Source: Candidatus Latescibacterota bacterium
Lineage (GTDB): Bacteria; Latescibacterota; UBA2968; UBA8231
NCBI GenBank assembly: GCA_965248355.1
Contig: OZ252098.1
Location: 4,928,001-4,992,000, forward strand
DNA length: 64,000 nt
Direction: 5' to 3'
Made by a program: the position numbers and the translations under genes. The notes under the pieces are model-generated. The model searched no databases, was not told the origin of the DNA, and saw only the letters and a list, made by a program, of their open reading frames with translations. How positions within the stretch are numbered: the stretch's first letter is position 1; every line of letters begins with the position of its first letter. Of this stretch, positions 18,508-58,721 are shown one piece after another.

Positions 18508-18593
18508 AGACTGGCCATGGCAAAGCAGTAAGGCGCAAGGTCTTGCGCTGCTCGCGAGGGGCTGTGCCTACAAGAGGAGGCAGGAGGCACAGA

Positions 18594-23577: not shown

Positions 23578-23611
23578 GGTGTGAGGCGCCCATCAAGGCG
23601 GGATGGCTTGC

Positions 23612-24198
23612 TCACTTGAGCTTGGCATAGCAAATCCATGTGTACCACAAGGCCTCTTCAAAGAAGAGCTGGTGAGATGACTTTTCGGGGCGCTTCAACA
23701 GCGGGGGCGGAGTCGGGTAGGACCGTTCATCCCAGTCATCTCCCCAGCGGGTCTTGTCGGGTTTGAAAATCGGTGGGAATTCGAAATAGATATCGAGGTT
23801 CTTGTGCAAGACACGGGCGGCAATCTCGTTGGGGCAGATGCGCGACACCTCGTACTGTGGGCTTAGAAAAAGCAGAGCAAGTCCCGATCGTCGTAGACTG
23901 CTTTCTGGGAAACATACTCGCGGTTCCTCAAGTCCAGGTCGATGGAAAGCAACTTGGCCTGGGGGCATGCCGTTTCCAGCAGCCAGGTGCTTTGTCCTTT
24001 CCATACCCCACTCTCTACGATCAAGTCGGGCGAGAGCTTTCTCGCCATGAACCAAAGGGCAAACATATGGGGTGACTTCATGCCCCCACGATTGTCCTTG
24101 ATGGGCCTGGTGGCATAGATCTCCGCGAACGTATCCAGCCCATTCAGAATCTCTTCACGGCTCCAAGGTGGTTGGCCGATTGTCACTGGGGGATTCAC
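23612..24198 (-). pseudogene. Disrupted methyltransferase-like gene
   Basis: The 5' half (IVESGVWKGQSTW, SAM-motif-like) stops at 23863. A protein-like C-terminus (YFEFPPIF...WICYAKLK) continues in another frame to 23612. Confidence 0.6.
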
Positions 24199-37965: not shown

Positions 37966-38217
37966 CTACTTCTTTCGGTTGGGCCGCTGCGTCAGTGCGG
38001 AGCCCGAGGAAGTCTTCGCGGTCTTGCTCGAGCCACTACTTCGAAGGGTCTTTGAGGCTGCCGACGCGGCTCGGTTCGAGGTTACCTTGGTCGTCTTCCG
38101 CTGTGACAGGGCGGAGCCGGCCGCAGACTTCTCCGACTTGCTGGACTTGCTGTCTCTCAGAACCCGTGAAGCTGCGGATGCCGCGCTCTTGCTCGTCTTC
38201 TCAGTTCTCTTGGCCAT
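37966..38217 (-). CDS. Small basic S/K/A-rich protein made of two tandem repeats
   Basis: GGAGG ribosome-binding site; two copies of TS..AASAAS..LR...SSK..K...GSAL.QR. Confidence 0.7.
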   Translation of the reverse strand: MAKRTEKTSKSAASAASRVLRDSKSSKSEKSAAGSALSQRKTTKVTSNRAASAASKTLRSSGSSKTAKTSSGSALTQRPNRKK

Positions 38218-38718
38218 CTTCTACTGCCTCCATCTCATGTCGGAACTGCTTGGCGATCTCGACAGGGGAAGTGTCACTCAGCACAAAGAACGTAACCAGC
38301 ACCAGCAAAGCGGCAAAAAGCAGGGCGCTTGCGAATCCTCCTGCCAGATTCACACCAAACTGAGGCCAGAAGCGCTTTAGCTCTTTGATCTCTCTTTGAT
38401 CTCATCGACGACTATGCCTTGCTCGATCTCCCGTCGCTGTTCCTCGATGAGCAGCTCGTTTACCTCCTCGGAGTACGCCTGCAGGGTGGCCTCGGCCGTT
38501 CCCTTGGCGCGAAGCAAAACGCTCGGGGGCTGCTGTTCATACCAATCTCTAACCTTGTCCGGGCCGGGTAGCTCTCCATGGGTCTGCTCGAAATGGCGCA
38601 TCCACTCGATTCTCTGTTCCTCGATGATGGCGAAGGCAGTCAAGCCATACAGCCAGCTTTCCTCTGACTCTTCGACCAGTTCCCTGTAGATCTCTTCCGA
38701 GCCGGAATATGGGGGCAA
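38201..38718 (-). pseudogene. Single-pass membrane protein disrupted by an 11-bp tandem duplication
   Basis: TTG at 38718 after GGAGAGGAGG; premature stop at 38377. Removing one TCTTTGATCTC copy restores ...EIKELKRFWPQFGVNLAGGFASALLFAALLVLVTFFVL...GQEN-stop at 38201. Confidence 0.75.
38382..38403. repeat. Perfect 11-bp tandem duplication (TCTTTGATCTC x2)
   Basis: Read directly at 38382-38392 and 38393-38403. Confidence 0.9.
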
Positions 38719-38850
38719 TGGATAGTCCTCCTCTCCCTGAATGGTCGCTTGCGCGACCTGCAAATGGGAAGGGAACCAACTCCTGGAACCGGGTCAAGAC
38801 AGAATGTGTGAGGGGTGGAGACCAGAAGGGCTCTTTGAATCCCCTCCCCC

Positions 38851-41397
38851 TCACGGCACCTCCAGCTCGTCGGGGCCGCGGACGATCTCCGCCCCTGGAT
38901 GCTTCTCGGCCAGGCGGGCCCCGAGCTCCTCCTGGGCCGCGGGCTCCCCGTGCACCAGGGCGATGTGCCGGGGCCGCAGCCGCCCCGCGTAGCTCACGAG
39001 TCCGGGCTGATCGGCGTGCGAGGAGAGGCCCACCTCCCGGGCCGGCAGGGCCGCCCGGATCTCGACGGTCTCGCCCGCCCCGTCGGAGAGCCGCACCTTG
39101 CGGGCGAGCCCGGAGGAGGACAGCTCGCGCAGGGCCCGGCTCGGGGCGCCCTCGTCCTGGTAGCCCGTCAGGACGATGCGGTGCCGGGGGTCGGGGAGCA
39201 GCCGCCGGGCGTACTCGATGACCGGCCCGCCTGTGAGCATCCCCGAGGTGGTCACGATGACGGAGGGAACCGTCCGCGCCGTCTCCGCGACCTCCTGCCG
39301 GTCGAAGGGGCCGGAGACCTCGCGGAAGGTCTCGGCGAGGCGGAAATCCGCGTGCTCTTCATAGATCGGGTTGATCTCCCGGATCATGCCGTCGAAGTGG
39401 ACGGGCAGGGAAGCCGGGAGCTCACCCTGGCTCTGGGCCGTGGAGATGAGCTTCAGCAGCTCCTGGGCGCGGCCGAGGGCGAAGGAGGCCAGGATCACCG
39501 AGCCGTTGCGCGTCCGGGTCGTCTCCTGGAGGAAGGCGACCAGTTCGCCGCGGACCTCCTCCATGGGCCGGTGCCGCCGGTTCCCGTAGGTGGACTCCAT
39601 GACCAGCAGGTCGACCTCGCCGAGGTCCTCGGGCCAGGAGGCGGCGGGCGTCGTGAGCTGGGGGAAGGAGGAGAAGTCGCCGGAGAAGAAGACCCTGCGT
39701 CCCCGGCCGTCCTCGATGAGGATGCTCGCGGCGCCGAGGATGTGGCCCGCGGGGAAGAACCGGATGGAGATGTCGTCGAAGGGCAGCCTTACCTCCTCGT
39801 CGAACCCGGAGGCGCATGCCAGGTGGGGGATCAGGTCCACGTCCTCCTGATCGTAGGCGTCCCGGGGCCCCTCGGCCTCGGCTCCGTACTGCGCGTTGTC
39901 GCGGCGCTGCCGCATCTTGTGGAGGTAGTGCTGCCGGCAATCCTGCAGCTGCACGGGAAGCAGCGCCGCCGTGCCGCTGGAGCAGTAGATGCCGAGGCCG
40001 TCGCCGAACCTGCGGACCAGCGCCGGGACCCAGCCGATGTGATCGGTGTGCGCGTGGGTCAGCAGGAGGGCGTCGATGCGGTCGAGGTCCCCGAAGCCGG
40101 GATGCAGGTCGCGCGAGGTGCTCGGCTTGATGCCGCAGTCGACGAGGATGCGGCGGCCCCCGAGCTCCAGGAGGTAGCAGCTCCGGCCGATCTCCGACGA
40201 GCCGCCGAGGGCGACGAGCCGCAGGGGCGGCTTCGGCCGCCGGAGCGCCACCGGACGCCGCCTGCGGTACCGGGGATAGGCCTCGAGGAAGGCCTCCTCG
40301 AGACGGAGGTGGGTGGTCCACTCCCCTTCCGCCCGCTGGCGCTCCGCCCCGGCGCGGTCCCCCCGGATGCGTTCCTTCTCCCGGCGCAGGAACCGCCACA
40401 CGGCATCGGCGCCCCTCGGACGGCTTGCGGCCTCTTGCTCCAGGCGCTTGACCCGGGTGTTCTCGTTGGCCAGACGGGAGGCGAGCCGGCTCCGCTCCTG
40501 GTCCTTCCGGTGGACCTCCTCCTGAAGCCGCCGCCGGTCCTGGAGCAGGTCGGTGTTCACTCTCTCGGTCTGAGCCGCCTTGAGCTCGTGATCCTCCATG
40601 TCGGAGTGGATCTCGCAAAGGCGGTTCTGGAGGCGATCGACGTCGGCCGCGGCGGCCTCGGCCTGCTCGCGGGACGTCCGCTGCTCCCCCCGGGTCTTCT
40701 CCAGCGCCAGCTCTGTCCGGCGCAAGGAGGCCCTGAGCCTGCCGGCCTCTTCCCCGGCTTCCTTCAGCTGTCTCTGCAGCTTGCGGCACTCGGCACTCAG
40801 CTCCTTCAGCGATTTCCGTTGCGCGCCGGTGCCCGGGGCCGCGGACGGGTCCGGGTCGGGGGAAGCGCCGTTGGCGGCGAGAGGCACGAGACAACGGAAC
40901 AACTCCTCCGCGTGGGGGGCCTGGAACCGCGACGCCCAGAGGACGGCCGTCAGGTTGTAGACCCCTTCCCGGTCCTTGAGAAGCTCGCTCAGCCGCTGGC
41001 CCCGCAGCAGGCTTCCATCCGAGAGCAGCCCGGACAACTCCTCGTACTCGCCGAGGATCGCCTCGCGGACGGTGACGACCAGATCGTGGTCCGGATGGGA
41101 CCAGAGGACCTCGTGCACCTCGCCGCTGACGCTCTGGAGGACCTGCCGCCGCATCCGACGGTAGCGCCTCAGGGGGGGCGGCAGGTGATGGCAATGCACG
41201 TTGGAGCACACCTTCCCGTGGTAGTCGAACAGCTCGATCGCGGCCTTGACCGGCAGGGCGAGGACGCTCTCGGGGACGGTGGCGGGACCCAGGGGGCCGT
41301 CGGGGACATCCCCTCCGTGAAGGGCCCGGAGGAGGGCCAGGGCGGGGGCCAGGTCCGGCGCCTGGCTGGACCCGGGGTTCGTGGAGTCGTCTGACAT
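38851..41397 (-). CDS. MBL-fold beta-CASP ribonuclease (CPSF73/Ysh1-like) with a long N-terminal coiled-coil extension
   Basis: EIGRSC, LVDCG, HAHTDHIG, AGHILG, FSGD, ESTYG, GRAQE, SGML.GG, GYQ, SSHAD and VHGE motifs. Confidence 0.88.
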   Translation of the reverse strand: MSDDSTNPGSSQAPDLAPALALLRALHGGDVPDGPLGPATVPESVLALPVKAAIELFDYHGKVCSNVHCHHLPPPLRRYRRMRRQVLQSVSGEVHEVLWSHPDHDLVVTVREAILGEYEELSGLLSDGSLLRGQRLSELLKDREGVYNLTAVLWASRFQAPHAEELFRCLVPLAANGASPDPDPSAAPGTGAQRKSLKELSAECRKLQRQLKEAGEEAGRLRASLRRTELALEKTRGEQRTSREQAEAAAADVDRLQNRLCEIHSDMEDHELKAAQTERVNTDLLQDRRRLQEEVHRKDQERSRLASRLANENTRVKRLEQEAASRPRGADAVWRFLRREKERIRGDRAGAERQRAEGEWTTHLRLEEAFLEAYPRYRRRRPVALRRPKPPLRLVALGGSSEIGRSCYLLELGGRRILVDCGIKPSTSRDLHPGFGDLDRIDALLLTHAHTDHIGWVPALVRRFGDGLGIYCSSGTAALLPVQLQDCRQHYLHKMRQRRDNAQYGAEAEGPRDAYDQEDVDLIPHLACASGFDEEVRLPFDDISIRFFPAGHILGAASILIEDGRGRRVFFSGDFSSFPQLTTPAASWPEDLGEVDLLVMESTYGNRRHRPMEEVRGELVAFLQETTRTRNGSVILASFALGRAQELLKLISTAQSQGELPASLPVHFDGMIREINPIYEEHADFRLAETFREVSGPFDRQEVAETARTVPSVIVTTSGMLTGGPVIEYARRLLPDPRHRIVLTGYQDEGAPSRALRELSSSGLARKVRLSDGAGETVEIRAALPAREVGLSSHADQPGLVSYAGRLRPRHIALVHGEPAAQEELGARLAEKHPGAEIVRGPDELEVP

Positions 41398-44954: not shown

Positions 44955-45338
44955 TCATCCGGCCGGGATCTTCCAGGGAAGCCACACGGAGACGGCCACC
45001 AGGAAGGCGGTCAGGGCCAGGGCGTAGAGCCCGGAGTAGAGGGGCAGCCTCCAGGCGCGCCGCACGATAGCCAGCCGCCGCTCGTCGTCCTCGATGGGCT
45101 CCGTGCCGGACTCGGTGGAGCAGACGCCGCGGGCGGCGTTGAGGACGCAGACGCGGGTCCGGGACTCGGCCAGGGAGAAGGTGCCGACCCAGAGCGGCAC
45201 GAAGACCACGAGGCGCAGCGCCAGGGGCGCGCCGGTCACGGTGAGCAGGGCCATCAGGCCGAGGGCGAACACCAGGAAGAGGACGCCGAGGAAGAGGCGG
45301 AAGCGCGCTCCGTCGACGCCGATGTTCCCCGCGGTCAT
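44955..45338 (-). CDS. Hypothetical membrane protein
   Basis: C-terminal part of ORF 44955..46436: MTAGNIG...; three hydrophobic segments; ATGA overlap with the hydrolase stop. Confidence 0.65.
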   Translation of the reverse strand: MTAGNIGVDGARFRLFLGVLFLVFALGLMALLTVTGAPLALRLVVFVPLWVGTFSLAESRTRVCVLNAARGVCSTESGTEPIEDDERRLAIVRRAWRLPLYSGLYALALTAFLVAVSVWLPWKIPAG

Positions 45339-46366
45339 CGCCGCGCCGCACCCGCGGGGGAGGCGGGGCTCTTCTCCCCCTCGACACGGCGCCGGATCCA
45401 GTCCCGGATGAGGGCCGCGGTCTCGGTGGGGTATTCGAGGTGCGGCGCGTGGCCGCAGGCCTCGAAGATGTGCAGCGTGGCGCCGGGGATCTCGGCCTCG
45501 AAGAGCAGCCCGAACAAGGGCGGCACGATGCGGTCCTCGGCACCCCACAGCACGAGGGTGGGCACGTCGATCTCCCGGTAGCGGTCGGTGAAGCGGGCGA
45601 TGTCGCCCGGGACCAGATTGCGCGCCGAGGCCTGGTAGGCCCTCACCGTGTTCGCCTCGCGCAGGAGGTGGACGGCCTTGTCCACCAGCTCTTCGGGGAT
45701 CTTGCCGGGATCGTGGAAGACGCGCCGGAAGGTGGAGCGCACGATGGCGCGCGCCAGGCCGGTGCCGAGCCCGAAGGCCAGGACCAGCCGGTTCAGCAGC
45801 AGCCGGCCGGGCCAGTCGGCCAGCAGGCGGATGTGCAGGGGAAGGGCCTGGGGGTAACCGGTGGCATCCTCCAGCACCAGTCCCCGGACCCGGGGTCCGC
45901 CGGGCCAGGGCGTGCACAGGCTGCGCAGGAAGACCCCGCCTCCGAAGGAGTTGCCCACCAGGACCACCTCGTCGAGACCGAGCCGCTCGACGAAGGCGCG
46001 GACGAAGCCGACCTGGGCCTCGGCCCCGTATCGCCGGGAGGCGGGCAGGGAGCTGAACTCTGGTTTGCTGCTGCGGCCGAAGCCGACCAGATCGGGGGCG
46101 ATCACGTGGTACCCGGCCTCGACCAGGTGGGGCGTCAGGGAGGACCAGGTGCCCTTGTGGTCGAACAGACCGTGGAGCAGCAGCACGTGGAGGGATGCGC
46201 CGGGATCTCCGTGCTCGGCGTAGGCCATGCGGATGTCGCGGCCTCCGTCTTCGCCGATGACCACGGAGGGCGAGCCGCCCGGCGCCGGCGCGCTGTGTCG
46301 ACCCTGATCCTTCAGGATGGGCGCGGGCAAGCCGGGGGCGGCAGGGGGGTCGGGATGGGAGTCCAT
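45335..46366 (-). CDS. Alpha/beta fold hydrolase
   Basis: LLHG, PDLVGFGRS, GNSFGG nucleophile elbow, WGAED and CGHAPH motifs. Confidence 0.9.
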   Translation of the reverse strand: MDSHPDPPAAPGLPAPILKDQGRHSAPAPGGSPSVVIGEDGGRDIRMAYAEHGDPGASLHVLLLHGLFDHKGTWSSLTPHLVEAGYHVIAPDLVGFGRSSKPEFSSLPASRRYGAEAQVGFVRAFVERLGLDEVVLVGNSFGGGVFLRSLCTPWPGGPRVRGLVLEDATGYPQALPLHIRLLADWPGRLLLNRLVLAFGLGTGLARAIVRSTFRRVFHDPGKIPEELVDKAVHLLREANTVRAYQASARNLVPGDIARFTDRYREIDVPTLVLWGAEDRIVPPLFGLLFEAEIPGATLHIFEACGHAPHLEYPTETAALIRDWIRRRVEGEKSPASPAGAARR

Positions 46367-46400: not shown

Positions 46401-46429
46401 AGTATAGCGGGGCCTGTCAGGGGCGGCAA
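46401..46429 (-). promoter_or_regulatory. Sigma70 promoter for the alpha/beta hydrolase
   Basis: TTGCCG-17 nt-TATACT on the minus strand, overlapping the end of senB. Confidence 0.55.
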
Positions 46430-47403
46430 GGCGCACTCCCGCCTTGTTTCGCCGCGCTCAGCTCCGCCAGCAGGTCGCGCCAGGCCCGCCGTTCGCGCGC
46501 CGGCTCGACCAGGACGGCCCGCTCGCGGCAGGCCCGCCCCAGCCGGTCGTAGAAGGCGGTGTCCGTCTCCGCCCGGGACAGCAGGTCGGCCAGGGCCTGG
46601 GTGTCGCCCACGGGGAAATACCCCGGATACCCGGGTCCGAGGAGACCGATGGAACCGGAGATCTCCGAGGAGACCACGGGCACCCCGAAGGCCAGGGCTT
46701 CGCAGACGACGTTGGCCCCGCCCTCCATCCGCGAGGTGAGGACCAGGAGGTGGCTGCGCCACAGCAGGCGCAGGGCCCGCCAGCGGGGCAGCTCGCCGAT
46801 CCAGCGGTAGCGCGGGTTGCGGACCTCCTCCCGCCGGGCGCGGACGGCCAGGTCCCGCTCCAGGGCACCGCCGGCCTGGACGACGCGAAGCCTCGAGGCC
46901 GCCGGCAGCCTCCGCGCCGCGGCCGCGGTTCTCAGCGGATCCTTCACCCCCCGCAGGTGACCCAGGACGCAGACCTGGAAGGCGCCGCTCACGGGCCGGG
47001 AGGGACGCCTCGGGGGGCGCAGGGACTGGACGATGACCCGCGCCCGGGGGCGCAGCCGCTCCGGCAGCTCCTCCACCCCGGCCTCCTGGAGGACGATCAG
47101 CCGGTCGGCCAGCTCCAGGCTGGCCCGGGCCCCGGCGTCGGTGCGGATGTCGCCGTAGAGGTCCGTGCCGGTCAGGGCCAGGACCAGGGGCCGGTCCGGG
47201 CGCCGCCCCTGGAAGCGCACCATGGAGTCCCGGCTGCGGCGCGCGTGGAGGGCCACCATCAGGTCGCAGCGCTGGTCCTCGAAGGCGACGGCGAGTCGCG
47301 CCTCGTGCCCGAGCTCGCGCAGGACCCGGGCCCAGCGCAGGGCCGTCACCCGGTTGCCCGAGCGGGACCTGGGAGGCGCCGGGGTGACGATGAGGACCCT
47401 CAT
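46417..47403 (-). CDS. senB: Selenosugar synthase SenB (selenoneine biosynthesis glycosyltransferase)
   Basis: IVTPAP....GNRVTA.RW, ALHARRS, LTGTDLY, GHLR.VKDP and S.MEGGANV.CEA motifs; adjacent to egtB-like and selD genes. Confidence 0.9.
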   Translation of the reverse strand: MRVLIVTPAPPRSRSGNRVTALRWARVLRELGHEARLAVAFEDQRCDLMVALHARRSRDSMVRFQGRRPDRPLVLALTGTDLYGDIRTDAGARASLELADRLIVLQEAGVEELPERLRPRARVIVQSLRPPRRPSRPVSGAFQVCVLGHLRGVKDPLRTAAAARRLPAASRLRVVQAGGALERDLAVRARREEVRNPRYRWIGELPRWRALRLLWRSHLLVLTSRMEGGANVVCEALAFGVPVVSSEISGSIGLLGPGYPGYFPVGDTQALADLLSRAETDTAFYDRLGRACRERAVLVEPARERRAWRDLLAELSAAKQGGSAPCRP

Positions 47404-47419
47404 GGCACCCGGGGATTCC

Positions 47420-48736
47420 TCACAAGGCGCAGGTGCGGAACCCGGTGAGCACGTCGCGGCGGTCGGGGGTCTGGAAGTTCCGGTACCCCGTGCGGGCCAG
47501 ACGCGCCCGGGTGGTCCAGCAGCCGCCGCGCATGACCTTGCGGGAGTGGAAGCAGGGCTCCGAGTACTCCTTGTAGGGATCCGGCTCGAATCCGGGGAAG
47601 GGCTCGAAGGTGGTGCTCGTCCACTCCCAGACGTTGCCGATCATCTGGCGGCAGCCCCAGGGGCTGTCACCGTCCGGCAGGCCGCCCACGTCCACGGTGC
47701 CCATGGCCCGCCAGTCGAGGTTGGCCCGTTCCGGGCCGGGAGCCCCGTCGCCCCACGGCCAGGGGCGGCGGCTCTCCGACAACCCGCCCCCGGCGGTGGG
47801 CTCGGCCACGGCGGCGGCCTCCCACTCCGCTTCGGTGGGGAGCCGGCGGCCGGCCCAGCGGCACCAGGCGTCGGCCTCGAACCAGTTCACGTGGATCACG
47901 GGGCGGTGCGGCTCGAGGTCGTGCCAGGCGTCGAAGTGGCGGCGCTGCCAGCCGCCGCCGCCCCGGCGCCAGTAGCAGGGGTGCTCGGCCCCTGCCTCGA
48001 CGCGCCAGGTCCAGCCCTCCTCGCTCCAGAGGCGTTCGTCGGCGTAGCCGCCGTCGTCGACGAACTCGGCGAAGCGCTCCTGGGAGACGGGGGCGCGGGC
48101 GATGCGGAAGGCCGGCAGCTCCACGGGGTGGGCCCACTTCTCGTTGTCGAAGACGAAGGGCGCGCCCCGCTCGGAGCCGAGGCGGTAGAGGCCGCCGGGG
48201 ACCTCGGCGTCCCCCGTCAGCCCGCCGCCGCCGATCTCCTCCTCGGAGCGGGGCACGCCCAGCCGGGGCGCCGGCCAGCCGTGGGTCTGGCGGGTGTACG
48301 TGAGGGCCTCGGTGTGCATGTCCTCGTGGAGCACCGAGTAGAGGGCGTGGTAGAGGACGTCGTCGCCGGGCGGATCGGCCAGCAGCAGCTCCTCGGTGCG
48401 GTCGAGGACCTCGCGAACGTAGCCGAGGGTTTCCTCCCGCGACGGCAGCGGCAGGTCCCAGCGCCGCTCGTGGGCGATGGCGATCGAGTCGTAGAGGTCG
48501 TCCTCGTCGGCGCGGACCGGGGCCTGGCCGCCGGCGTGGCGCACCACCCACCGGGACTGGAACCAGGCGTGGTGGCCGATCTCCCACAGGCCGGGGTTGA
48601 CGATGGCCAGCTGCGGGCCGAGCAGTTGCTCGTCGGTGAGGTCCGAGACCAGCTCCAGGGTGCGCTGCCGGGCGTCGCGGACCCAGCGAGCCAGCTCTTC
48701 CCGGGCGATCATGTCGAGGATGCGGTGCTCGGGCAT
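47420..48736 (-). CDS. senA: Selenoneine synthase SenA (EgtB-like, DinB + FGE-sulfatase domains)
   Basis: R.RTL.L, NPGLWEIGHHAWFQ, iron motif HEDMHTE, FDNEK.AH, RRLPTEAEWE, GNVWEWT and GFRTC; lies between senB and selD. AAGGGGG precedes ATG 48736. Confidence 0.88.
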   Translation of the reverse strand: MPEHRILDMIAREELARWVRDARQRTLELVSDLTDEQLLGPQLAIVNPGLWEIGHHAWFQSRWVVRHAGGQAPVRADEDDLYDSIAIAHERRWDLPLPSREETLGYVREVLDRTEELLLADPPGDDVLYHALYSVLHEDMHTEALTYTRQTHGWPAPRLGVPRSEEEIGGGGLTGDAEVPGGLYRLGSERGAPFVFDNEKWAHPVELPAFRIARAPVSQERFAEFVDDGGYADERLWSEEGWTWRVEAGAEHPCYWRRGGGGWQRRHFDAWHDLEPHRPVIHVNWFEADAWCRWAGRRLPTEAEWEAAAVAEPTAGGGLSESRRPWPWGDGAPGPERANLDWRAMGTVDVGGLPDGDSPWGCRQMIGNVWEWTSTTFEPFPGFEPDPYKEYSEPCFHSRKVMRGGCWTTRARLARTGYRNFQTPDRRDVLTGFRTCAL

Positions 48737-48851
48737 CTTTCCCCCTTCTGGTATGCACGTAAAGATACGTCCCCGTGGCGGGGCAACCGCTTTGCCTCCC
48801 CCGCGAGGGATGACTAGGTTCCGCCCCCCCCAACAAGGATCCGGAGACCGA

Positions 48852-49907
48852 ATGACTCTGCCGAACAAGGACATAACCCTCACGAGCCTGGCCAGGACCT
48901 GCGGCTGAGCGGCGAAAGTGAGTCCGGTCGGACTCGCCACGCTGCTGGAAGGGCTTCCGGGCCAGGTCGACCCGAACCTGCTCGTCGGGTTCGAGACGAG
49001 TGACGACGCGGCCGTCTACCGGCTCGACGACGAGCGCGCGCTGGTGCTCACGGCGGACATCATCACGCCGCCGGTGGACGATCCGGTGCTCTTCGGCCGG
49101 ATCGCCGCGGCCAACTCGTTGAGCGACGTGTACGCCATGGGCGGCCGGCCCCTGGCGGCGCTGAACCTGCTGGGCTTTCCCGGCGACCAGCTCGGACCCG
49201 AGGTGCTGGCCGGCATCGTCGCCGGGGCCCGCGAGAAGGTCGTGGAGGCCGGCGCCGTGCTCGCCGGAGGCCATACCACGGACGACGAGGAGCCCAAGTT
49301 CGGCCTCTCCGTCACCGGTCTCGTGCACCCGGAGCGCTACTGGCGCAACGTGGGAGCGCGTCCGGGCGACGCCCTCGTGCTGACCAAGCCCATCGGCAGC
49401 GGCGTGCTGTTCAACGGGAACCTGCGGGGCTGGGTCTCGGCCGAGGCGCTGGCCGCCTGCGTGGAGTCCCTGACGACGTTGAACCGGGCGGCTGCCGAAG
49501 GCCTGGCCCGCTTCGAGGTGCACTCCGCCACCGACGTGACCGGCTTCGGCCTGGCCGGTCACGCCTTCGAGATGGCCAGCGGCTCGGGGGTGACCCTGCA
49601 CATCGACGCCGGCGCCGTGCCCGTGTACGACGAGGCTCTCGACATGTACCGGAGGGGCGTTTCCACCGGCGTGAACCGGGCCAACCGCGAGCTCGTCGAG
49701 GCCTCCACCCGGTTCGCACCCGGCCTGCCGGAGGAGTGGCGCGAGCTGGCCGTCGATCCGCAGACCAGCGGCGGGCTGCTGGCCGCCCTCCCGGCGGACC
49801 AGGCCCGCGAAGCCGTGGGCGCCCTGGTCGATGGGGGTGTGCCGGCTGCGGCCGTCGTCGGCCACGTCCGACCCCAGGAGGGAGAGGTGCACCTGGTCTT
49901 CAGCTGA
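48852..49907 (+). CDS. selD: Selenide, water dikinase SelD/SenC, selenocysteine-containing (UGA at 48906-48908)
   Basis: GGAG then ATG 48852: MTLPNKDITLTSLARTCG-U-AAKVSP, in frame with ORF 48918..49907 (DDAAVY, AANSLSDVYAMGG, GGHT, LTKPIGSG, TDVTGFGL.GH, DPQTSGGLL). Confidence 0.95.
48909..48937 (+). promoter_or_regulatory. Bacterial SECIS-like hairpin downstream of the selD UGA
   Basis: Stem GAGTCC (48920-48925)/GGACTC (48930-48935) with a GGTC loop starting 17 nt after the UGA. Confidence 0.75.
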
Positions 49908-49977
49908 GGGCTCGCCCGTCTCCGTTCCGCCGCCCACGGCGGCGCCATCCACACCAATCACAGAGGGCCGTACAAGA

Positions 49978-50874
49978 ATGATGCGATGGATCCTGCTGCT
50001 TGCCGTGCTCCCTTGGCTCGAGACCCCCGCGAGCGCCGCGGAGGAGGTCTTTCGCTTCACCGCGATCCCCGACCAGGACACGGCGAGACTGAAGGAGCGG
50101 TTCGACAAGGTCGCCGCGTACCTGGGCTCGAAGCTCGGCGTCCCCGTGGAGTACGTGCCGGTCAAGTCGTACGCCGCCTCGGTGTCCGCCTTCAAGAACG
50201 GAGAGGTGCAGCTGGCCTGGTTCGGGGGCCTGTCCGGCGTCCAGGCCCGCCGCGGCGTGCCCGGCTCGCAGGCCATCGCCCAGGGTCAGGAGGACGTGGA
50301 GTTCGTCACCTACTTCATCGCCCACACCAGCACCGGCCTTCGAGAGGCGGCCACCTGCCCCTGCAGCGGGGCGGACAGGGAAGCGGGCTTCCCGGCCGGG
50401 ATCGCCGGCAAGACCTTCACCTTCGGCTCCAAGGGATCGACCTCGGGGCGGCTCATGCCGGAGTACTTCATCCGCCGCCACTTCGGCAAGCCCCCGGGGG
50501 AGGTCTTCGAGCGCGTCGGCTTCAGCGGCGACCACTCCAAGACCCTGGCCCTCGTGCAGTCCGGCGCCTACCAGGCCGGGGCCCTGAACTACAAGGTGTG
50601 GGAGAACGAGATGGCGGCGGGCCGCGTGGACACGTCCAAGGTGCGCGTCGTCTGGCGCACGCCGACCTACCCGGACTACAACTGGTCGATCCGCGGCGAC
50701 GTGGACCGCCGCTACGGAGAGGGTTTCACCGACCGCGTCCGCCAGGCCCTGCTGGGCATGGAGGACCGGGGACTGCTCGACTCCTTCCCGCGGGCGGCGT
50801 TCATCGCCGCCGACAACACCATGTACGCGCCGATCGTCGAGACCGGCAGGGCCATCGGCATCCTCGAGGAGTGA
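49978..50874 (+). CDS. PhnD-like ABC substrate-binding protein (putative selenate/Se-species binding family)
   Basis: Signal peptide; FTAIPDQD, LAWFGGLSGVQAR, FTFGSKGSTSGRLMP, FSGDHSKT and TP.Y.DYNW motifs. Confidence 0.85.
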   Translation: MMRWILLLAVLPWLETPASAAEEVFRFTAIPDQDTARLKERFDKVAAYLGSKLGVPVEYVPVKSYAASVSAFKNGEVQLAWFGGLSGVQARRGVPGSQAIAQGQEDVEFVTYFIAHTSTGLREAATCPCSGADREAGFPAGIAGKTFTFGSKGSTSGRLMPEYFIRRHFGKPPGEVFERVGFSGDHSKTLALVQSGAYQAGALNYKVWENEMAAGRVDTSKVRVVWRTPTYPDYNWSIRGDVDRRYGEGFTDRVRQALLGMEDRGLLDSFPRAAFIAADNTMYAPIVETGRAIGILEE

Positions 50875-51581
50875 TGGGTTCCATGCCCGCCCCGGCGGCC
50901 GGCCCGCTTTTCGATCTGCGGGACGAGCACGTTCGCCAGGGCGCCACCGAGGCCCTGCGCGGCGTCGATCTGCGGGTCGAGCGCGGCGAGAAGGTGGTCG
51001 TCATCGGCCCCAGCGGCGCCGGCAAGTCCACCCTGCTGCGGGTCCTCCAGGCCCGCCGACCGGCCGACTCCGCCTGCGTGCACCAGGACTACGCCCTGGT
51101 GCCGCAACTGTCGGCGTTCCACAACGTCTACGCCGGCCGCCTCGACCGGAACTCGACTCTCGCCAGTCTCGTGGACCTGGTGAAGCCCCGCCGCCGGGTG
51201 GTTGAGGAGGTGCGTCCCCTCTTTCGCGACCTCGGCCTGGAGGACAAGCTCTTCGAGGCGGTGAGCCAGCTCTCCGGCGGCCAGCAGCAGCGGGTCGCCG
51301 TGGGGCGGGCCCTCTACCAGGGGGGCAGCGTGGTCCTCGCGGACGAACCGGTGTCGGCCGTCGATCCCCATCAGGCCGGCGATGTCCTGGAACTGCTCAA
51401 GGCCCGCTGCGAGACCGCGGTGGTGGCCATGCACGACGTCGACCTCGCACTGCAGCACTTCGACAGGGCCGTGGGACTGCGCGAGGGACGGATCGCCTTC
51501 GATCTGCGCTCCGCCGAGGTCGGCGCCCGGCGGCTGCAAGCGCTGTACCGCGGCGAAGCGAGTCCCGAACCATCGACCTGA
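50874..51581 (+). CDS. ABC transporter ATP-binding protein (PhnC-like)
   Basis: GPSGAGKST, LSGGQQQRVA, LADEP and MHD motifs; ATG overlaps the stop of the binding-protein gene. Confidence 0.9.
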   Translation: MGSMPAPAAGPLFDLRDEHVRQGATEALRGVDLRVERGEKVVVIGPSGAGKSTLLRVLQARRPADSACVHQDYALVPQLSAFHNVYAGRLDRNSTLASLVDLVKPRRRVVEEVRPLFRDLGLEDKLFEAVSQLSGGQQQRVAVGRALYQGGSVVLADEPVSAVDPHQAGDVLELLKARCETAVVAMHDVDLALQHFDRAVGLREGRIAFDLRSAEVGARRLQALYRGEASPEPST

Positions 51582-51591
51582 GACATCCGCC

Positions 51592-53088
51592 GTGCTGAAG
51601 GCGAGCCTGTGGTTCCTGGCGGTGGGCCTCGTCTGCCTGGCCCTGGCCGACGTCGAGGTCGTCACCCTCGACCCGTGGGGCGAGCTGGGGCGCCTGCTCT
51701 CGGGGTTCGCGCGTCCCGACCTGCGGGTGCTGCCGGCCCTCGGGGAGGCCCTGCTCAACACCATCACCTTCGCCTTCTGCGGCCTCTCCCTGGCCGTGAT
51801 CCTCGGCTCGGGGCTCGCCTTTTTCTTCGAGCACCGCGTCGTGCGTCTCGGCTGCGCCGCCGTGCGCGCCGTCCACGAGATCTTCTGGGCCTTCCTGTTC
51901 CTGCCCATGATAGGGCTCAACCCGGTCTGCGGCGTGCTGGCCATCGCCATCCCCTACGCCGGCGTCTTCGCCAAGGTCTACGCCGAGATCCTGCAGGAGG
52001 CCGACCGCCGGCCCATGCAGGCCCTGCCTCCGGGCTCGACGGAGGTCAGCCGGTTCTGCTACGGGGTGCTGCCCACCATCTGGCCCAACCTGAAGGCCTA
52101 CACCGCCTACCGCCTGGAGTGCGCCCTGCGCTCCAGCGCGGTCCTCGGCTTCATCGGCCTCCCAACCCTCGGCTTCCACCTGGAGACCGCCTTCCGGGAG
52201 GGCCTGTACGGCGAGGCGGCGGCCCTGCTCTACGTCTTCTACTTGCTCATCGCGTCGTTGAGGTACTGGGTCCGCCCCCGGCTGGTGGCGCTCTACGCGG
52301 GGCTGTCGGCGTGGGCCGTGTCGCCGGAGGTCCACCTCTCCTGGGTCAACGTGAAGCGCTTCCTGACCTGGGAGATCCTGCCCTGGCCGATGCGGCGGGA
52401 GGGCTTCCTCGACGGCAGTCTCGACATCGCCTTTCCAGGGGATCAGGTCTGGGCGTGGTGCGGCGAGCTGGTGCGCGGTCAGGCCCTGCCGGGCCTGTGG
52501 AGCACGGTCCTGCTCACCCAGGTGGCGCTGGCGGCCACCGCCCTCTTCGCCGTCGCCTTCCTGGGCGCTGCCTGCCGCCACGTGAGCCCGGGGCCGGTGC
52601 GCAAACTCGTGCACTTCGGCCTCATCGTCGGGCGCACGACGCCCGAATACATCCTCGCCTACATCTTCCTGCAGTTGTGGGGGCCGTCGATGCTTCCCGC
52701 CCTGGTCGCCATCCTGCTGCACAACGGCGCCATCCTGTCCTACCTCGGCGCCGGCTCGGCGAACGTGATGCGGCTGCGGCCCGACGCCCCGCGCGGCGCT
52801 CTCGACCGCTACGCCTGGGAGGTTCTGCCCCGGGTCTACGGACAGTTCCTCGCCTTCCTGTTCTACCGCTGGGAGGTGATGATGCGAGAGTCCGCGATCC
52901 TCGGGATCCTGGGGGTCACAACCCTCGGGTTCTTCATCGACAGCGCCATCGCCGAAGACAAGCTCGACCAGGCCGTGGTGCTCATCGGGTTCACGGCCCT
53001 GCTCAACATGGGGATCGACTCGATCTCGCAGGTGGTGCGGCGCCGGCTGCGGCTGGCCTCGGGAGCCTCCCTGGCCGTCGCCGACTGA
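51592..53088 (+). CDS. ABC transporter permease with two fused PhnE-like domains
   Basis: Two repeats: RAVHEIFWA...YRLECALRSSAVLG and RTTPEYI.A...YRWEVMMRESAILG. Start uncertain. Confidence 0.85.
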   Translation: MLKASLWFLAVGLVCLALADVEVVTLDPWGELGRLLSGFARPDLRVLPALGEALLNTITFAFCGLSLAVILGSGLAFFFEHRVVRLGCAAVRAVHEIFWAFLFLPMIGLNPVCGVLAIAIPYAGVFAKVYAEILQEADRRPMQALPPGSTEVSRFCYGVLPTIWPNLKAYTAYRLECALRSSAVLGFIGLPTLGFHLETAFREGLYGEAAALLYVFYLLIASLRYWVRPRLVALYAGLSAWAVSPEVHLSWVNVKRFLTWEILPWPMRREGFLDGSLDIAFPGDQVWAWCGELVRGQALPGLWSTVLLTQVALAATALFAVAFLGAACRHVSPGPVRKLVHFGLIVGRTTPEYILAYIFLQLWGPSMLPALVAILLHNGAILSYLGAGSANVMRLRPDAPRGALDRYAWEVLPRVYGQFLAFLFYRWEVMMRESAILGILGVTTLGFFIDSAIAEDKLDQAVVLIGFTALLNMGIDSISQVVRRRLRLASGASLAVAD

Positions 53089-54105
53089 TCATCGGGAGGT
53101 CGCGGGGGTCATCAGACTCAGGCTGAACCGCCTCCCTCCGTCGAGCCACTGACGCTCGATGGCGAAGCCGGCGGCCGCCGACAGCTCCGCGATCCCCTCG
53201 AGGGAGTACTTGCATGAATTCTCGGTGTGGATCGTCTCTCCCTCGTCGAAGGAGAGGTGCAGACCGAGGGCCTCGATCCAGACGGTCTGGTCCCTCAGCG
53301 ACCGCAGGTGCATCTCCATCCGTCCCCCGGCCTCGTTCCAGCGGGCCTCGTGGGCGAATGCGTCCGTTTCGAAGCGGCCGTCCAGCTCGCGGTTGATGCG
53401 CTCCAGAAGGTTCAGGTTGAATTGCGCCGTCACCCCGGCGTCGTCGTCGTAGGCGGCCACCAGGGTCGCCGGGTCCTTGCGCAGGTCGATGCCGATGAGC
53501 AGAGCGTCCCCGGGGCGCATGGCCCGGCCCAGGCGCCGCAGGAAGCGCACGGCCTCCTGCGGGGTGAAGTTGCCCACGTTCGAGCCCAGCCACAGCACCA
53601 GCCTCGGCGGCCCTCCCTCGGCCTCGAGGTAAGCCAGGCCCTCGTGATACTCGCCGGCCACGGCCAGCACCTCCAGATCGGGGTAGGTCTGCACGAGGGT
53701 CAGCGAGCTCTCCCGCAGCATGGAGCTCGAGATGTCGACGGGGATGAAGCGCAGCCGCCCCTGGCGGCGGAGCAGGGCCTCGATGACGAGCCGGGTCTTG
53801 CCGGAGTTGCCGGAGCCGAGGTCGACGAGGTCCACGGGTTGTCCGAGACCGGCGGCCAGCTCGTCGGCATGGGCCTCGAGGATGGACCGCTCCGCCCGCG
53901 TCAGGTAGTACTCCGGCAGCTCGCAGATGCGCTCGAACAGCCGCGATCCCCGTTCGTCGTAGAAATAGAGACAGGGAAGCCGCTTCGGCCGGGCCGTCAG
54001 CCCGGCGCGCACGTGGCCGGCCAAGTCTGCGCTCGGGCGGCCTTCCGGGGCGGCGACCAGCGTCAGGCTGTCCGAGTCGGTGGGAACTTCCCTGAAGCCG
54101 TGAAT
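53089..54105 (-). CDS. egtD: L-histidine N(alpha)-methyltransferase EgtD (hercynine synthase)
   Basis: GL...PK.LP..YFYDERGS.LFE.IC.LPEYYLTRAE, DLGSG...KT, WLGSNVGNF, AYDD.AGVTA.FN.N and IHTENS.KY motifs. Start either TTG 54024 or ATT 54105. Confidence 0.92.
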   Translation of the reverse strand: MHGFREVPTDSDSLTLVAAPEGRPSADLAGHVRAGLTARPKRLPCLYFYDERGSRLFERICELPEYYLTRAERSILEAHADELAAGLGQPVDLVDLGSGNSGKTRLVIEALLRRQGRLRFIPVDISSSMLRESSLTLVQTYPDLEVLAVAGEYHEGLAYLEAEGGPPRLVLWLGSNVGNFTPQEAVRFLRRLGRAMRPGDALLIGIDLRKDPATLVAAYDDDAGVTAQFNLNLLERINRELDGRFETDAFAHEARWNEAGGRMEMHLRSLRDQTVWIEALGLHLSFDEGETIHTENSCKYSLEGIAELSAAAGFAIERQWLDGGRRFSLSLMTPATSR

Positions 54106-54329
54106 GGAGGTCTCCTGCGGATGACGATTCTTCGGAAGGGGGCCGGTCCCGGGCCTCCCCGGGAATCGAGAAGGCGGATTATAGGGAACATGCGGGGCAG
54201 GGGCGACGGGGAGGGCGGACGGCGCCGCGGTTGCCCGGCTGTGAGCGGCATGGCTTTCGCAAGCCCCGTGTGGCTCCGGCCGGCCGCTGCCGCGGCCTCG
54301 CTCCGGGCGTCACCTCCAGGATCGCGAAC

Positions 54330-55237: not shown

Positions 55238-56275
55238 ATGACCATCAAGACAGTCGGCATCCTCACCGGTGGCGGCGATTGCCCCGGACTCAACGCCGTT
55301 ATCCGGGCGGTGGTCCGCAAGGGGATCTCCCACTACGGTTACCGCTTCCGCGGGGTCCAGAAGGGTTGGAAGGGCTTGATGGAGTGCCTCTGGGAACCCC
55401 TGGGCCACGAGGAGGTGTCCGGCATCCTGCCCAAGGGCGGCACCATCCTCGGAACCTCGCGCACCAACCCCTACAAGATCCCCGATGGCGGCGACATCGT
55501 CATGGAGAACATGAAGCGCATGAAGCTCGACGCCCTGATCGCCATCGGGGGCGACGACACGCTCACCGTGGCCCACAAGCTGGCCTCGGCCGGCGCCGCC
55601 GTGGTGGGCGTGCCCAAGACGATCGACAACGACATCTCCAACACCGACTACACCTTCGGCTTCGACACCGCCGTCAACATCGTCACCGAGGCTCTCGACC
55701 GCATCCACACGACGGCCGAGTCCCACAACCGCGTGATGGTCGTCGAGGTGATGGGGCGGCACTCGGGCTGGATCGCCACCTACGCCGGCATCGCCGGCGG
55801 CGCCGACCTGATCCTGATCCCCGAGCAGAGCATCTCCATTCAGGAGACCATCGACATCATCAAGATGCGCCACGACAGGGGCAAGGACTTCAGCATCGTC
55901 GTCGTCGCCGAAGGGGTGAAGTTCGACGGCGACGAATACGTGGTGCAGGAGGGCGGTACCGACGAGTTCGGACATGTCAAGCTCGGCGGCGTGGGCCAAC
56001 TGGTGGGGGATGCCATCGAGAGGGAGACCGGTTTCGAGACCCGCGTCATCGTGCTGGGGCACCTGCAGCGCGGCGGGACCCCCACGGCTTTCGACCGGGT
56101 TCTCGGGACGCGCTACGGCATCGCGGCCATCGATCTGGTCAAGACCGGGGATTGGGGCAAGATGGTCGCCCTCCAGGGCGACGAGATCGTGGCCCTGCCT
56201 CTGGAGAGGGGAATCGGTGAGCTGAAGAGGGTGGGGGTGGAGCTGTACGATATCTCGCGCGTGTTCTTCGGCTGA
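55238..56275 (+). CDS. pfkA: 6-phosphofructokinase, probably PPi-dependent
   Basis: LTGGGDCPGLNA, GGTILGTSR, GGDDT, PKTIDND, EVMGR and LGHLQRGG motifs. Confidence 0.93.
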   Translation: MTIKTVGILTGGGDCPGLNAVIRAVVRKGISHYGYRFRGVQKGWKGLMECLWEPLGHEEVSGILPKGGTILGTSRTNPYKIPDGGDIVMENMKRMKLDALIAIGGDDTLTVAHKLASAGAAVVGVPKTIDNDISNTDYTFGFDTAVNIVTEALDRIHTTAESHNRVMVVEVMGRHSGWIATYAGIAGGADLILIPEQSISIQETIDIIKMRHDRGKDFSIVVVAEGVKFDGDEYVVQEGGTDEFGHVKLGGVGQLVGDAIERETGFETRVIVLGHLQRGGTPTAFDRVLGTRYGIAAIDLVKTGDWGKMVALQGDEIVALPLERGIGELKRVGVELYDISRVFFG

Positions 56276-56294
56276 CCGGAAGGAGCCCTGTGGC

Positions 56295-57488
56295 ATGGCC
56301 AAGCAGACGATTGACGACATCGATGTGGCGGGGAAACGGATCCTGGTGCGGGAGGACTTCAACGTGCCCCTCGACGGGGACCAGCGGATCATCGACGACA
56401 GGCGCGTCCGCGCCGCCCTCCCCACATTGTGGCAATTGCTCGAAAAGGGCTCCTCTCTGGTGCTCATGTCCCATCTCGGGCGGCCCAGGGGCCAGGTGCG
56501 ATCCGGGCTCTCCCTGGAACCGATCGTCCAGGAGCTGCACGCCCATCTCGGCACCAGCGTGCACCTGGCGCCCGACTGCATCGGGGAAGAGACGGCGCGA
56601 CTGGCCGCGGAGCTGAAGCCGGGCAGCGTGCTGCTCCTCGAGAACCTGCGCTTCCACGCCGGGGAGGAGGCCAACGACAGCGACTTCGCGCGCCAACTGG
56701 CCGAGCTGGGCGACGGCATCTTCGTGAACGACGCCTTCGGAGCCGCCCATCGGGCCCACGCCTCGACGGAGGGCATCACCAGGCATGTGGAGCACAGCGT
56801 CGCCGGCTACCTGATGAAGAAGGAGCTGCAGTACCTGCAGGAGGCCCTCTCCGATCCCGCGCGGCCCTTCGTCGCCATTCTCGGCGGCGCCAAGGTGGCG
56901 GACAAGATCGAGGTGATCGAGAACCTGCTCGACAAGGTCGACGCCCTGCTCATCGGCGGCGGCATGGCCTATACCTTCCTCAAGGCGCGGGGTCTCGAGA
57001 TCGGCAACTCCCTGTGCGACGAGGAGTCGGTGTCGGTGGCCGCGGATCTGCAGTCGAAGGCCGGCGACAGGCTGGTCCTGCCGGTGGACTGCATCGTCGC
57101 CCGGAGGGTGGCCGCCGGCGCCGAGCACGAAACCGTGGCCGTCGACGCCATCCCCTCCGACCGCGGGGGCGTCGACATCGGGCCGCTGACCCGGGAGCGC
57201 TTCGTCGAACACCTGAGCCAGGCCGGGACGGTGCTGTGGAACGGACCCCTCGGCGTCTTCGAGATCGACGACTTCGCCGCCGGCACGACGGCCGTGGCCC
57301 GCGCCCTGGAGCAGGCCACCTGGGAGTCGGGAGCGGTGAGCATCATCGGCGGCGGGGACACCGCCGCCGCCGTGGCCAAGGCCGGCGCCGGCAAGCGCAT
57401 GTCCCACATCTCCACGGGCGGGGGGGCCTCCCTCGAAGCCCTGGGAGGCAGGGTCCTGCCGGGGGTCGCCGCCCTCGACGACGGGTGA
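56295..57488 (+). CDS. pgk: Phosphoglycerate kinase
   Basis: [37 protein letters not shown] and STGGGASLE motifs. Confidence 0.97.
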
Positions 57489-58255
57489 TGACGCGGTCCA
57501 TGCGAAGACCCCTCGTGGCCGCCAACTGGAAGATGAACCTGTCGCCGCAGGAGGGCGCCGCCCTGGCTCGCAAGCTCCTGCCCCGGATCCGGGGAGAGAC
57601 CGGTTCCGTCGACGTCGTCCTCTGTCCACCCTACCTCGGCCTGGCGGCGGTCGGGGCCGAGCTGGCGGGCAGCGCGGTCGGTCTGGGAGCCCAGAACGCG
57701 CACTGGGAAGAGAGCGGCGCCTTTACCGGCGAGGTGTCCCCCGGGATGCTGTTGACCCTTGCCTGCCAATGGGTTATACTGGGACATTCTGAGCGGCGGC
57801 AGCTGTTCGGAGAGACCGACGAGGGCGTGAGCCGGCGCACCCGGGCGGCTCTCGGAGCGGGTCTGAAACCGATCCTCTGCATCGGCGAGACCCTCGGTCA
57901 GCGTGAGGCCGGTCAGGCCGAGAGCATCGTTCTGGGACAGTTGGACCGGGGCCTCGAGGGGCTCTCGGCCGAGCAGGTTCTCTCGGTCGCCGTGGCCTAC
58001 GAGCCGGTCTGGGCGATCGGCACCGGCCGCACCGCCACCCCCGAGGAGGCTCAGGTCGTTCACGCTCTGATTCGTGCCCGCCTGCGCGAGAGCTTCGGCG
58101 AGGCGGCCGAAACCGTGCGCATCCAGTACGGCGGCAGCGTCAAGTCGGACAATGCCGCCGAGTTGTTCGGCCAGGCCGACATCGACGGGGGCTTGATCGG
58201 CGGCGCCTCCCTCCGGGCCGAAGAATTCGCCGCCATCGTCCGCGCCGCCAACTGA
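57488..58255 (+). CDS. tpiA: Triosephosphate isomerase
   Basis: AANWKM, GHSERR, AYEPVWAIGTG, YGGSV and GGASL motifs. Confidence 0.97.
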   Translation: MTRSMRRPLVAANWKMNLSPQEGAALARKLLPRIRGETGSVDVVLCPPYLGLAAVGAELAGSAVGLGAQNAHWEESGAFTGEVSPGMLLTLACQWVILGHSERRQLFGETDEGVSRRTRAALGAGLKPILCIGETLGQREAGQAESIVLGQLDRGLEGLSAEQVLSVAVAYEPVWAIGTGRTATPEEAQVVHALIRARLRESFGEAAETVRIQYGGSVKSDNAAELFGQADIDGGLIGGASLRAEEFAAIVRAAN

Positions 58256-58270
58256 GACACAGGCCCCGCC

Positions 58271-58633
58271 ATGACCATCCTGCTGACCGTCGTCCACATC
58301 CTCGTCTGCATTCTGCTGGTCGTCGCCGTGCTGCTGCAGTCCGGCAAGGGCGGCGGACTGGCCGCGTCCGTGGGCGGCGGTCTGAGCTCTACCTCCGTCC
58401 TCGGCGGCCGGGCGGCCACCTCCTTCCTCACCAAGACGACGACCTACCTGGCCGCCGCCTTCCTGCTGCTGTGTCTCGTCCTGGCCGTGGCCTACGACGA
58501 GGACGAGGGGCTGCCGACGACGGCGAGCGAGCGTCTGCTGCAGGCGCAGGAGGGGGCGGCACCGGTTGCTCCCACGCCCTATCAGCCGCAGGCGGGCGAG
58601 CCGGAGGAGTCGGATGCGGTCCTGCCGCAGTGA
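58271..58633 (+). CDS. secG: Preprotein translocase subunit SecG
   Basis: VLLQSGKGGGL and FLTKTT with two TM helices; canonical tpiA-secG-tRNA-Leu order. Confidence 0.93.
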   Translation: MTILLTVVHILVCILLVVAVLLQSGKGGGLAASVGGGLSSTSVLGGRAATSFLTKTTTYLAAAFLLLCLVLAVAYDEDEGLPTTASERLLQAQEGAAPVAPTPYQPQAGEPEESDAVLPQ

Positions 58634-58636
58634 CTT

Positions 58637-58721
58637 GCGGAAGTGGTGAAATTGGTAGACACGCTGTCTTGAGGGGGCAGTGCCTTCGGGCGTCGGGGTT
58701 CGAGTCCCCGCTTCCGCACCA
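58637..58721 (+). tRNA. tRNA-Leu (GAG)
   Basis: GCGGAAG/CTTCCGC acceptor stem; anticodon arm CTGTC-TTGAGGG-GGCAG; long variable arm; GGTTCGAGTCC; encoded CCA. Confidence 0.95.

Follow-up and report, generated by a model that had tools for sequence, protein, structure and literature searches.

The 64,000-nucleotide stretch of DNA analysed here (the window) carries a seven-gene cluster between positions 46,417 and 54,105: senB and senA on one strand, a divergent selD followed by three genes for an ATP-binding cassette (ABC) importer, and a convergent egtD (Table 1). The cluster very probably makes selenoneine, to judge from its protein sequences. Taken as a whole, it is probably a selenoneine cluster that supplies its own hercynine and is linked to an oxyanion importer, whose cargo is most likely selenite. 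The initial annotation had listed the same seven genes and coordinates, and profile searches confirm them, with five proteins over NCBIfam cut-offs, SenA, SenB, SelD and EgtD among them. An egtB homologue, a TIGR04348 gene and selD lie within 5 kb of one another, as in the definition of a sen cluster. The window's genome (G000) is one contig and 95.7% complete. It was compared with kin in a set of 61 genomes that includes it; the kin are not independent, so association tests overstate.

The assignment of SenA relies on profiles, active-site residues and a tree. SenA passes its own family model and stays under the EgtB cut-off (327.8 against 360). Its best PDB matches are OvsA (325 and 315 bits), then SenA (257) and EgtB (252), and the published residue code was therefore tested. 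SenA has the motif NEH-HRHMH-YY-NFQ-R and carries Y391, N420 and F421, the three residues that convert OvsA into SenA, instead of the M401/Q430/A431 of OvsA. The EgtB type I motif SDH..RRHQHYYNWDR and its Arg87/Asp416 pair are absent, with His89 and Gln422 at these two positions. The composite motif of PMC11030361 matches at 13 of 14 tested positions, a count that leaves out a free first position and two gap positions; the matches take in the three-His iron site, the catalytic Tyr, the N/E position, the His-Arg donor residues, the Y/N/F hercynine residues and the final Arg. Applied to other sequences, the same mapping reproduces the strings published for EgtB-I and OvsA. In a quick IQ-TREE phylogeny (LG+G4), SenA falls inside a SenA+OvsA clade, apart from EgtB-I (SH-aLRT 100). 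This tree used 72 chosen rows of 192 aligned, with four loci rows left out as redundant or truncated, and its references were classed by motif, with no characterised enzyme included. The claim of selenoneine synthesis in the initial annotation is well supported by family cut-offs, active-site residues and tree. SenA is the sole NHISS in the genome, which also lacks egtB. With one NHISS and one egtD, selenoneine would be the only histidine-derived thiol or selenol.

SenB and EgtD would supply the two substrates. Solved SenB chains match the window protein at E about 1e-56, and it is over the TIGR04348 cut-off. All ten residues taken from Variovorax paradoxus SenB (PMC10891094) are kept: N20, T23, H58, R61, T83, T85, R155, V157, K158 and E231, which include the catalytic N20/T23/E231, K158 and H58. 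SenB H235 is replaced by Asn, so that EGGAHV reads EGGANV. EgtD is over the TIGR03438 cut-off and under that of the EasF model (193.8 against 205.55), and mycobacterial EgtD structures match it at E 2e-76. Its gene is single-copy and, because the genome has no egtB, would serve the selenoneine pathway alone. No conserved ATG, GTG or TTG is found upstream of the egtD core. ATT or ATC stands 31-33 codons before a conserved Val in nine of 24 egtD loci, eight with a Shine-Dalgarno-like word, and in L042, L045 and L050 no standard start lies between this codon and the upstream stop. An ATT or ATC start behind such a word appears to be used across the family, at 54103-54120 (minus strand) in the window and in L039, L041-L045, L050 and L149. 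Translation of egtD probably begins at AUU (ATT 54105), a non-AUG start that may lower the output of an enzyme costly in S-adenosylmethionine.

Other NHISS genes are found among the kin. A second NHISS, which the window's genome lacks, occurs in congeners G002, G006 and G007 and in the kin genome G011 and scores about 275-280 bits to the SenA model; the one in L152 (9316-10662) has the motif SNHHQHQHIYNFWF and fits none of six published classes. Where kin lack senA, they have an EgtB-II-like gene that in most cases lies next to egtD (L146:8107-11452; L148-L151). In G036, this gene and egtD adjoin a selenocysteine (Sec)-type selD, at the place held by senA in other kin.

SelD is predicted from its gene sequence to be a selenoprotein with selenocysteine at codon 19. 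Read from ATG 48852, the frame has TGA at this codon (48906-48908) in the motif TCG-U-AAK, aligned with the catalytic Cys17 of E. coli SelD. The hairpin after the UGA has a z of -4.2, and none of 200 shuffles was equally stable. In an alignment of 16 kin sequences (15 distinct), 91% of cells are paired and two of 14 pairs changed on both sides; the covariation score was reached by 0 of 500 shuffles, a significance inflated by the relatedness of the sequences. The genes selA, selB and tRNA-Sec(UCA) are over cut-off in the genome, together at C1:2.83 Mb and 2.1 Mb from selD; they form one selA-selB-selC run at G000:C1:2828863-2832304, minus strand (L001, L003, L005). No selU match was found in the genome, and the selD of the locus is its only selD. 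The stretch 48131-49149 is identical in contigs from a second study. TGA is present in all 14 selD genes found among 20 kin senA loci, and 51 of 56 selD matches in the 61 genomes contain at least one internal TGA. Thus, a TGA-bearing selD characterises the class. Further selenoprotein genes were sought with a script, whose 404 candidates were obvious noise and were dropped.

Because the selD UGA requires selA-selB-selC elsewhere, the locus depends on distant genes. The initial annotation had called it self-contained, which does not hold, as the locus also lacks a gene for the step from oxyanion to selenide: no selenite-reducing enzyme is encoded there, whereas some gammaproteobacterial clusters have an oxidoreductase fused to SelD. 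The 115-bp divergent gap given in the initial annotation is correct only with selD starting at ATG 48852 and with readthrough of the TGA, which that annotation did not mention. The catalytic position and the following Lys also align with the Aquifex aeolicus type of SelD (PDB 2YYE). The native A. aeolicus enzyme is of the selenocysteine type, and 2YYE is a Cys variant. Unlike that gene, the window selD sits in a selenometabolite cluster, although Sec-type SelD is common in the class and not specific to the cluster.

In the proposed pathway, the ABC system would import biselenite, and cell thiols or reductases encoded outside the locus would reduce selenite to selenide. SelD would make selenophosphate, from which SenB would build a 1-seleno-sugar with a UDP-sugar, while EgtD would trimethylate histidine, each as shown for homologues. 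SenA would then attach selenium to C2 of hercynine, and the resulting selenoxide would eliminate the sugar, again as in homologues, so that no lyase would be needed. The sole SelD, itself a selenoprotein, would feed both selenocysteine and selenoneine synthesis, which may create a positive feedback.

The importer is the less certain half of the cluster. Its binding protein is over the cut-off of TIGR04553, which NCBIfam names a 'putative selenate ABC transporter'. By sequence and fold, its closest solved relatives are the picocyanobacterial PhnD1 proteins 7S6G and 5LQ5/5LQ8 (39-44% identity, TM-score 0.83-0.84). The ten pocket and cap residues named for Prochlorococcus PhnD1 (D13, Y46, F90, S126, T127, S128, H158, N176, D205, Y206; PMC5700983) are all identical, with Phe90 corresponding to Phe110 in the window protein. 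The affinity of that PhnD1 is 51 nM for mono-anionic phosphite but 182 uM for phosphate, and its Tyr cap hinders a fourth substituent (PMC5700983). The ligand preference of PhnD1 has been called paradoxical (PMC10284923), in an article whose main text does not mention selenium. The PhnD1 gene adjoins tesA and its product was tested on phosphorus ligands (PMC10284923, PMC5700983), whereas the window gene follows selD and comes with a fused permease. With such a pocket, the window protein likely takes a small pyramidal oxyanion. Biselenite is a three-oxygen pyramidal mono-anion (pKa2 near 8.3). Since it is shaped like phosphite, and selenate has four oxygens like phosphate, selenite is a better guess than the selenate of the database label. 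On balance, a selenium oxyanion is the likelier physiological cargo. According to a 2026 review, no specific high-affinity selenium transporter is known in prokaryotes (PMC13188914). No test of selenium binding by the TIGR04553/PhnD1 family was found in a literature search that left subscription papers mostly outside.

TIGR04553 divides into two subgroups, at 55-76% and 35-41% identity to the window protein, which share the same pocket (L135, L138, L139, L143) and go with a fused and an apparently split permease, respectively. Members lie directly behind selA-selB in L135 and behind mnmH in L138.

Gene distribution ties the importer to selenium. Among the 61 kin genomes, the binding protein occurs in 22 (one split) and selD in 56; senA is over cut-off in 21, and five more genomes count as positive on the basis of split or contig-edge pieces next to selD. 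The binding protein is present in 21 of these 26 senA-positive kin and in one of the other 35, and the importer stays beside senA where selD has moved off (L049, L053, L058). As a second sample, 300 genomes were drawn evenly from the class to which G061 (Amphritea locus L131) belongs, and the centre and one unscored genome were excluded. There, selD is found in 9 of 10 carriers of the binding protein against 46 of 289 non-carriers, and senB in 6 of 10 against 8 of 289 (Fisher p about 1e-6, kinship ignored). In five of 11 fetched gammaproteobacterial loci, the binding protein adjoins selAB, sen genes, a selD fusion or mnmH. The exact seven-gene order recurs in five of 20 kin senA loci (congeners G002, G004, G006 and G007, and G028); one further locus has egtD 8 kb off, and several end at contig edges. 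Of the best 80 named loci, eight have the binding protein and three, from Methylococcaceae, Amphritea and Dehalococcoidia, encode all seven functions but arrange them differently.

Among named records, the closest relatives of SenA belong to Ca. Latescibacterota (71% and 69%), and one of them falls within the kin in the tree; thus, the lineage is probably Ca. Latescibacterota. A run labelled sponge metagenome contains a 916-nt contig that shows 16 differences from selD. The host association suggested initially is therefore plausible. A search for literature on selenoneine in sponge symbionts, with subscription papers mostly outside it, found nothing relevant.

Several observations weigh against a selenium importer and would instead fit sen genes that make selenoneine beside an ABC system that mainly imports phosphate or phosphite, or both phosphate and selenite, and that may be the main phosphate route here. 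The ligands measured for the nearest solved binding proteins are without exception phosphorus oxyanions, and selenium uptake by the locus, as proposed in the initial annotation, is an inference. PhnD1 binds phosphate at 7-182 uM and is a proposed constitutive phosphate transporter (PMC10284923, PMC5700983). It occurs in all 97 picocyanobacterial genomes (PMC10284923), and only three Prochlorococcus genomes are named with an (orphan) selD (PMC5029168); a general presence of selD in picocyanobacteria finds no support in the latter source. Sequence cannot separate the binding protein from phosphate binders. The importer is missing from five of the 26 senA-positive kin, and six of the 11 gammaproteobacterial loci lack a selenium gene in the stretch fetched, some of them limited by contig ends. 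The window's genome, moreover, has no pstS (two models), pstC, Pit over cut-off or Na/Pi cotransporter, which makes a dual selenite and phosphate role conceivable. Congeners G007 and G006 have 9.4 kb (L155:2688-12086 and L157:1823-11222) that this genome lacks, with pstS-pstC-pstB and the first part of phoB. Only G000 and G035 of the 61 genomes lack both Pst and Na/Pi, and both carry the binding protein. Other results speak against a phosphate importer. Within the family, absence of Pst is not tied to the importer (11/21 against 6/16, p 0.51), so that a family-wide replacement of Pst was rejected, and congeners G002, G004, G006 and G007 keep Pst along with the same seven genes. At the junction G000:C1:4449972/4449973, outside the window, the flanks are joined at a short shared word and both flanking genes are cut mid-frame; the loss looks recent, or could be an assembly mis-join. 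None of 26 neighbouring open reading frames scanned encodes a Pst or C-P lyase protein over cut-off, and no C-P lyase phnJ was found in the genome. Linkage to three different selenium traits would also go unexplained. A phosphate or dual importer is thus rather unlikely, and selenite import is preferred. Tentatively, and with somewhat more doubt than belief, phosphite binding in the PhnD1 family may be selenite mimicry, which would resolve the PhnD1 paradox; the importer of the Pst-less strain may then double as a phosphate route and couple selenoneine output to the Se:P ratio.

The product of SenA can be questioned in a similar way. Gln422 stands where the published motif wants Phe or Tyr (the EgtB Asp416 position), so that SenA falls under 'Other' by the strict published rule. 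All SenA proteins are said to have Phe or Tyr there (10.1101/2022.04.13.486033), and Phe397 of V. paradoxus SenA, which Gln422 replaces, is one of two donor-pocket differences from EgtB that have been named (PMC11237966). An N-F-Q SenA might therefore use another donor (selenosugar, thiosugar or small selenol) and yield a different product, or selenoneine plus ergothioneine, and the genome has no further NHISS. The variant is lineage-wide: N-F-Q occurs in 15 and N-F-M in two of 101 rows, all from the window, kin or Latescibacterota records, and N-F-Q is absent from 95 full-length distant representatives (those of 380-500 aa among 150 returned). Other SenA-like proteins, however, tolerate Ala, His and Cys at this position, all remaining motif positions are SenA-type, the adjacent senB has intact catalytic residues, and the cluster contains no tailoring enzyme. 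A different donor is quite improbable. Even less credible is that the enzyme belongs to the ergothioneine sulfoxide synthases (EgtB) or to the ovoselenol synthases (OvsA). The adjacent egtD, the EgtB score and the OvsA structures as best PDB match, ahead of SenA itself, speak for it, but the score is under its cut-off, neither signature motif is present, and the tree separates SenA from EgtB-I. Furthermore, no egtA/C/E or ovsM is among the seven genes, and OvsA hosts mostly lack egtD (PMC11030361). SenA is best read as a selenoneine synthase.

Table 1. Features of the seven-gene cluster, in window coordinates, with profile scores in bits against cut-offs.
Feature	Position	Strand	Remarks
senB	46417-47403	-	Selenosugar synthase, GT-B glycosyltransferase; TIGR04348 409 vs 300
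senA	47420-48736	-	Non-haem iron selenoxide synthase, N-F-Q variant; NF041186 505.5 vs 420
Divergent intergenic region, 115 bp	48737-48851	.	Presumed promoters both ways; from sequence
selD/senC	48852-49907	+	Selenophosphate synthetase; TIGR00476 338.7 vs 125 (part after UGA)
SECIS-like hairpin, apical loop GGUC	48908-48946	+	Directly 3' of UGA; folding and covariation
Periplasmic binding protein, PhnD1 type	49975-50874	+	TIGR04553 368.1 vs 250
PhnC-like ABC ATPase	50874-51581	+	Phosphonate model 164.6 vs 266.1 (under cut-off); start overlaps binding-protein stop
Fused double PhnE-like permease	about 51592-53088	+	TIGR01097 206.1 vs 216.7 (under cut-off); start probably GTG 51592
egtD	53089-54105	-	Histidine trimethylase; TIGR03438 371.2 vs 290.9; probable non-AUG start ATT 54105

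The permease has eight hydrophobic segments, and its homologues align from about 51592 onward. The term 'island', used in the initial annotation, is unsupported, because the G+C content of the seven-gene region (0.69-0.75) equals that of the flanks and no mobility gene is among 15 proteins scanned within 38.8-55.1 kb; close kin keep the gene order at 81-92% protein identity. Rfam, searched at gathering scores, gave no match in the window. A scan for sigma-70 promoters and terminators gave nothing above chance, with no sigma-70 consensus match in the 115-bp gap. Beyond the genus, this gap is poorly conserved except for TTGC and a spaced TAGGTT-like word, and it holds no element conserved across the whole family. 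In RNA libraries of close strains, each of the seven genes is partly represented by contigs, some of which run across the junctions senA-senB, selD-binding protein, binding protein-ATPase and ATPase-permease. These contigs also span flanking DNA, so they demonstrate neither expression nor a single transcript.

Other features of the window lie outside the cluster. On the minus strand, 3' of senB, an alpha/beta hydrolase gene (45335-46366) follows after about 50 bp, and further downstream is a gene for a small membrane protein with no family match (44955-45338). An 848-aa protein (38851-41397, minus strand) combines a coiled-coil N-terminal half with a beta-CASP nuclease domain and scores under cut-off for both aCPSF1 (236/580) and type VII Cas14 (199/800). 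Beyond egtD, visual inspection of translations suggests pfkA-, pgk-, tpiA- and secG-like genes within 55238-58721, and a tRNA-Leu(GAG) lies at 58637-58721. Lower G+C stretches (0.56-0.61 against a background near 0.70) lie at 17001-19000, 22001-24000 and 38001-39000.

The cluster is of an already published kind, with minor variants: a Sec-type SelD, an N-F-Q SenA and a probable AUU start. The discovery preprint (Kayrouz et al., 10.1101/2022.04.13.486033) reports 827 sen clusters, many near a putative selenate transporter and a small subset with egtD. Among NHISS neighbourhoods, 3.1% contain the transporter and 8.1% SenB (PMC13674229). Unlike the senA-senB-senC clusters of V. paradoxus and Amycolatopsis palatopharyngis, the window's has a UGA-decoded SelD, the sole one in a genome that uses Sec, a SenA with Gln in place of Phe397, and a probably AUU-started egtD in a genome without egtB. 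The ovs cluster of Halomonas utahensis (OvsA, OvsM, SenB, SenC; PMC11030361) has the same selenosugar cassette, and its OvsA is the best-scoring solved relative of SenA; the window's differs in its Y/N/F hercynine residues, in having egtD and in lacking OvsM.

The N-F-Q SenA and the AUU/AUC egtD start are small departures from known clusters. With this locus, the lineages known to produce selenoneine would grow by one, probably Ca. Latescibacterota and in some cases living in sponges, a matter of relevance to the source of selenoneine in marine animals. Of wider weight is the ligand of the importer, which could be either the missing specific bacterial selenium importer or a phosphate importer. 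If it binds selenite, it could be the first specific bacterial selenium transporter, and the PhnD1 of Prochlorococcus and Synechococcus could be reinterpreted.

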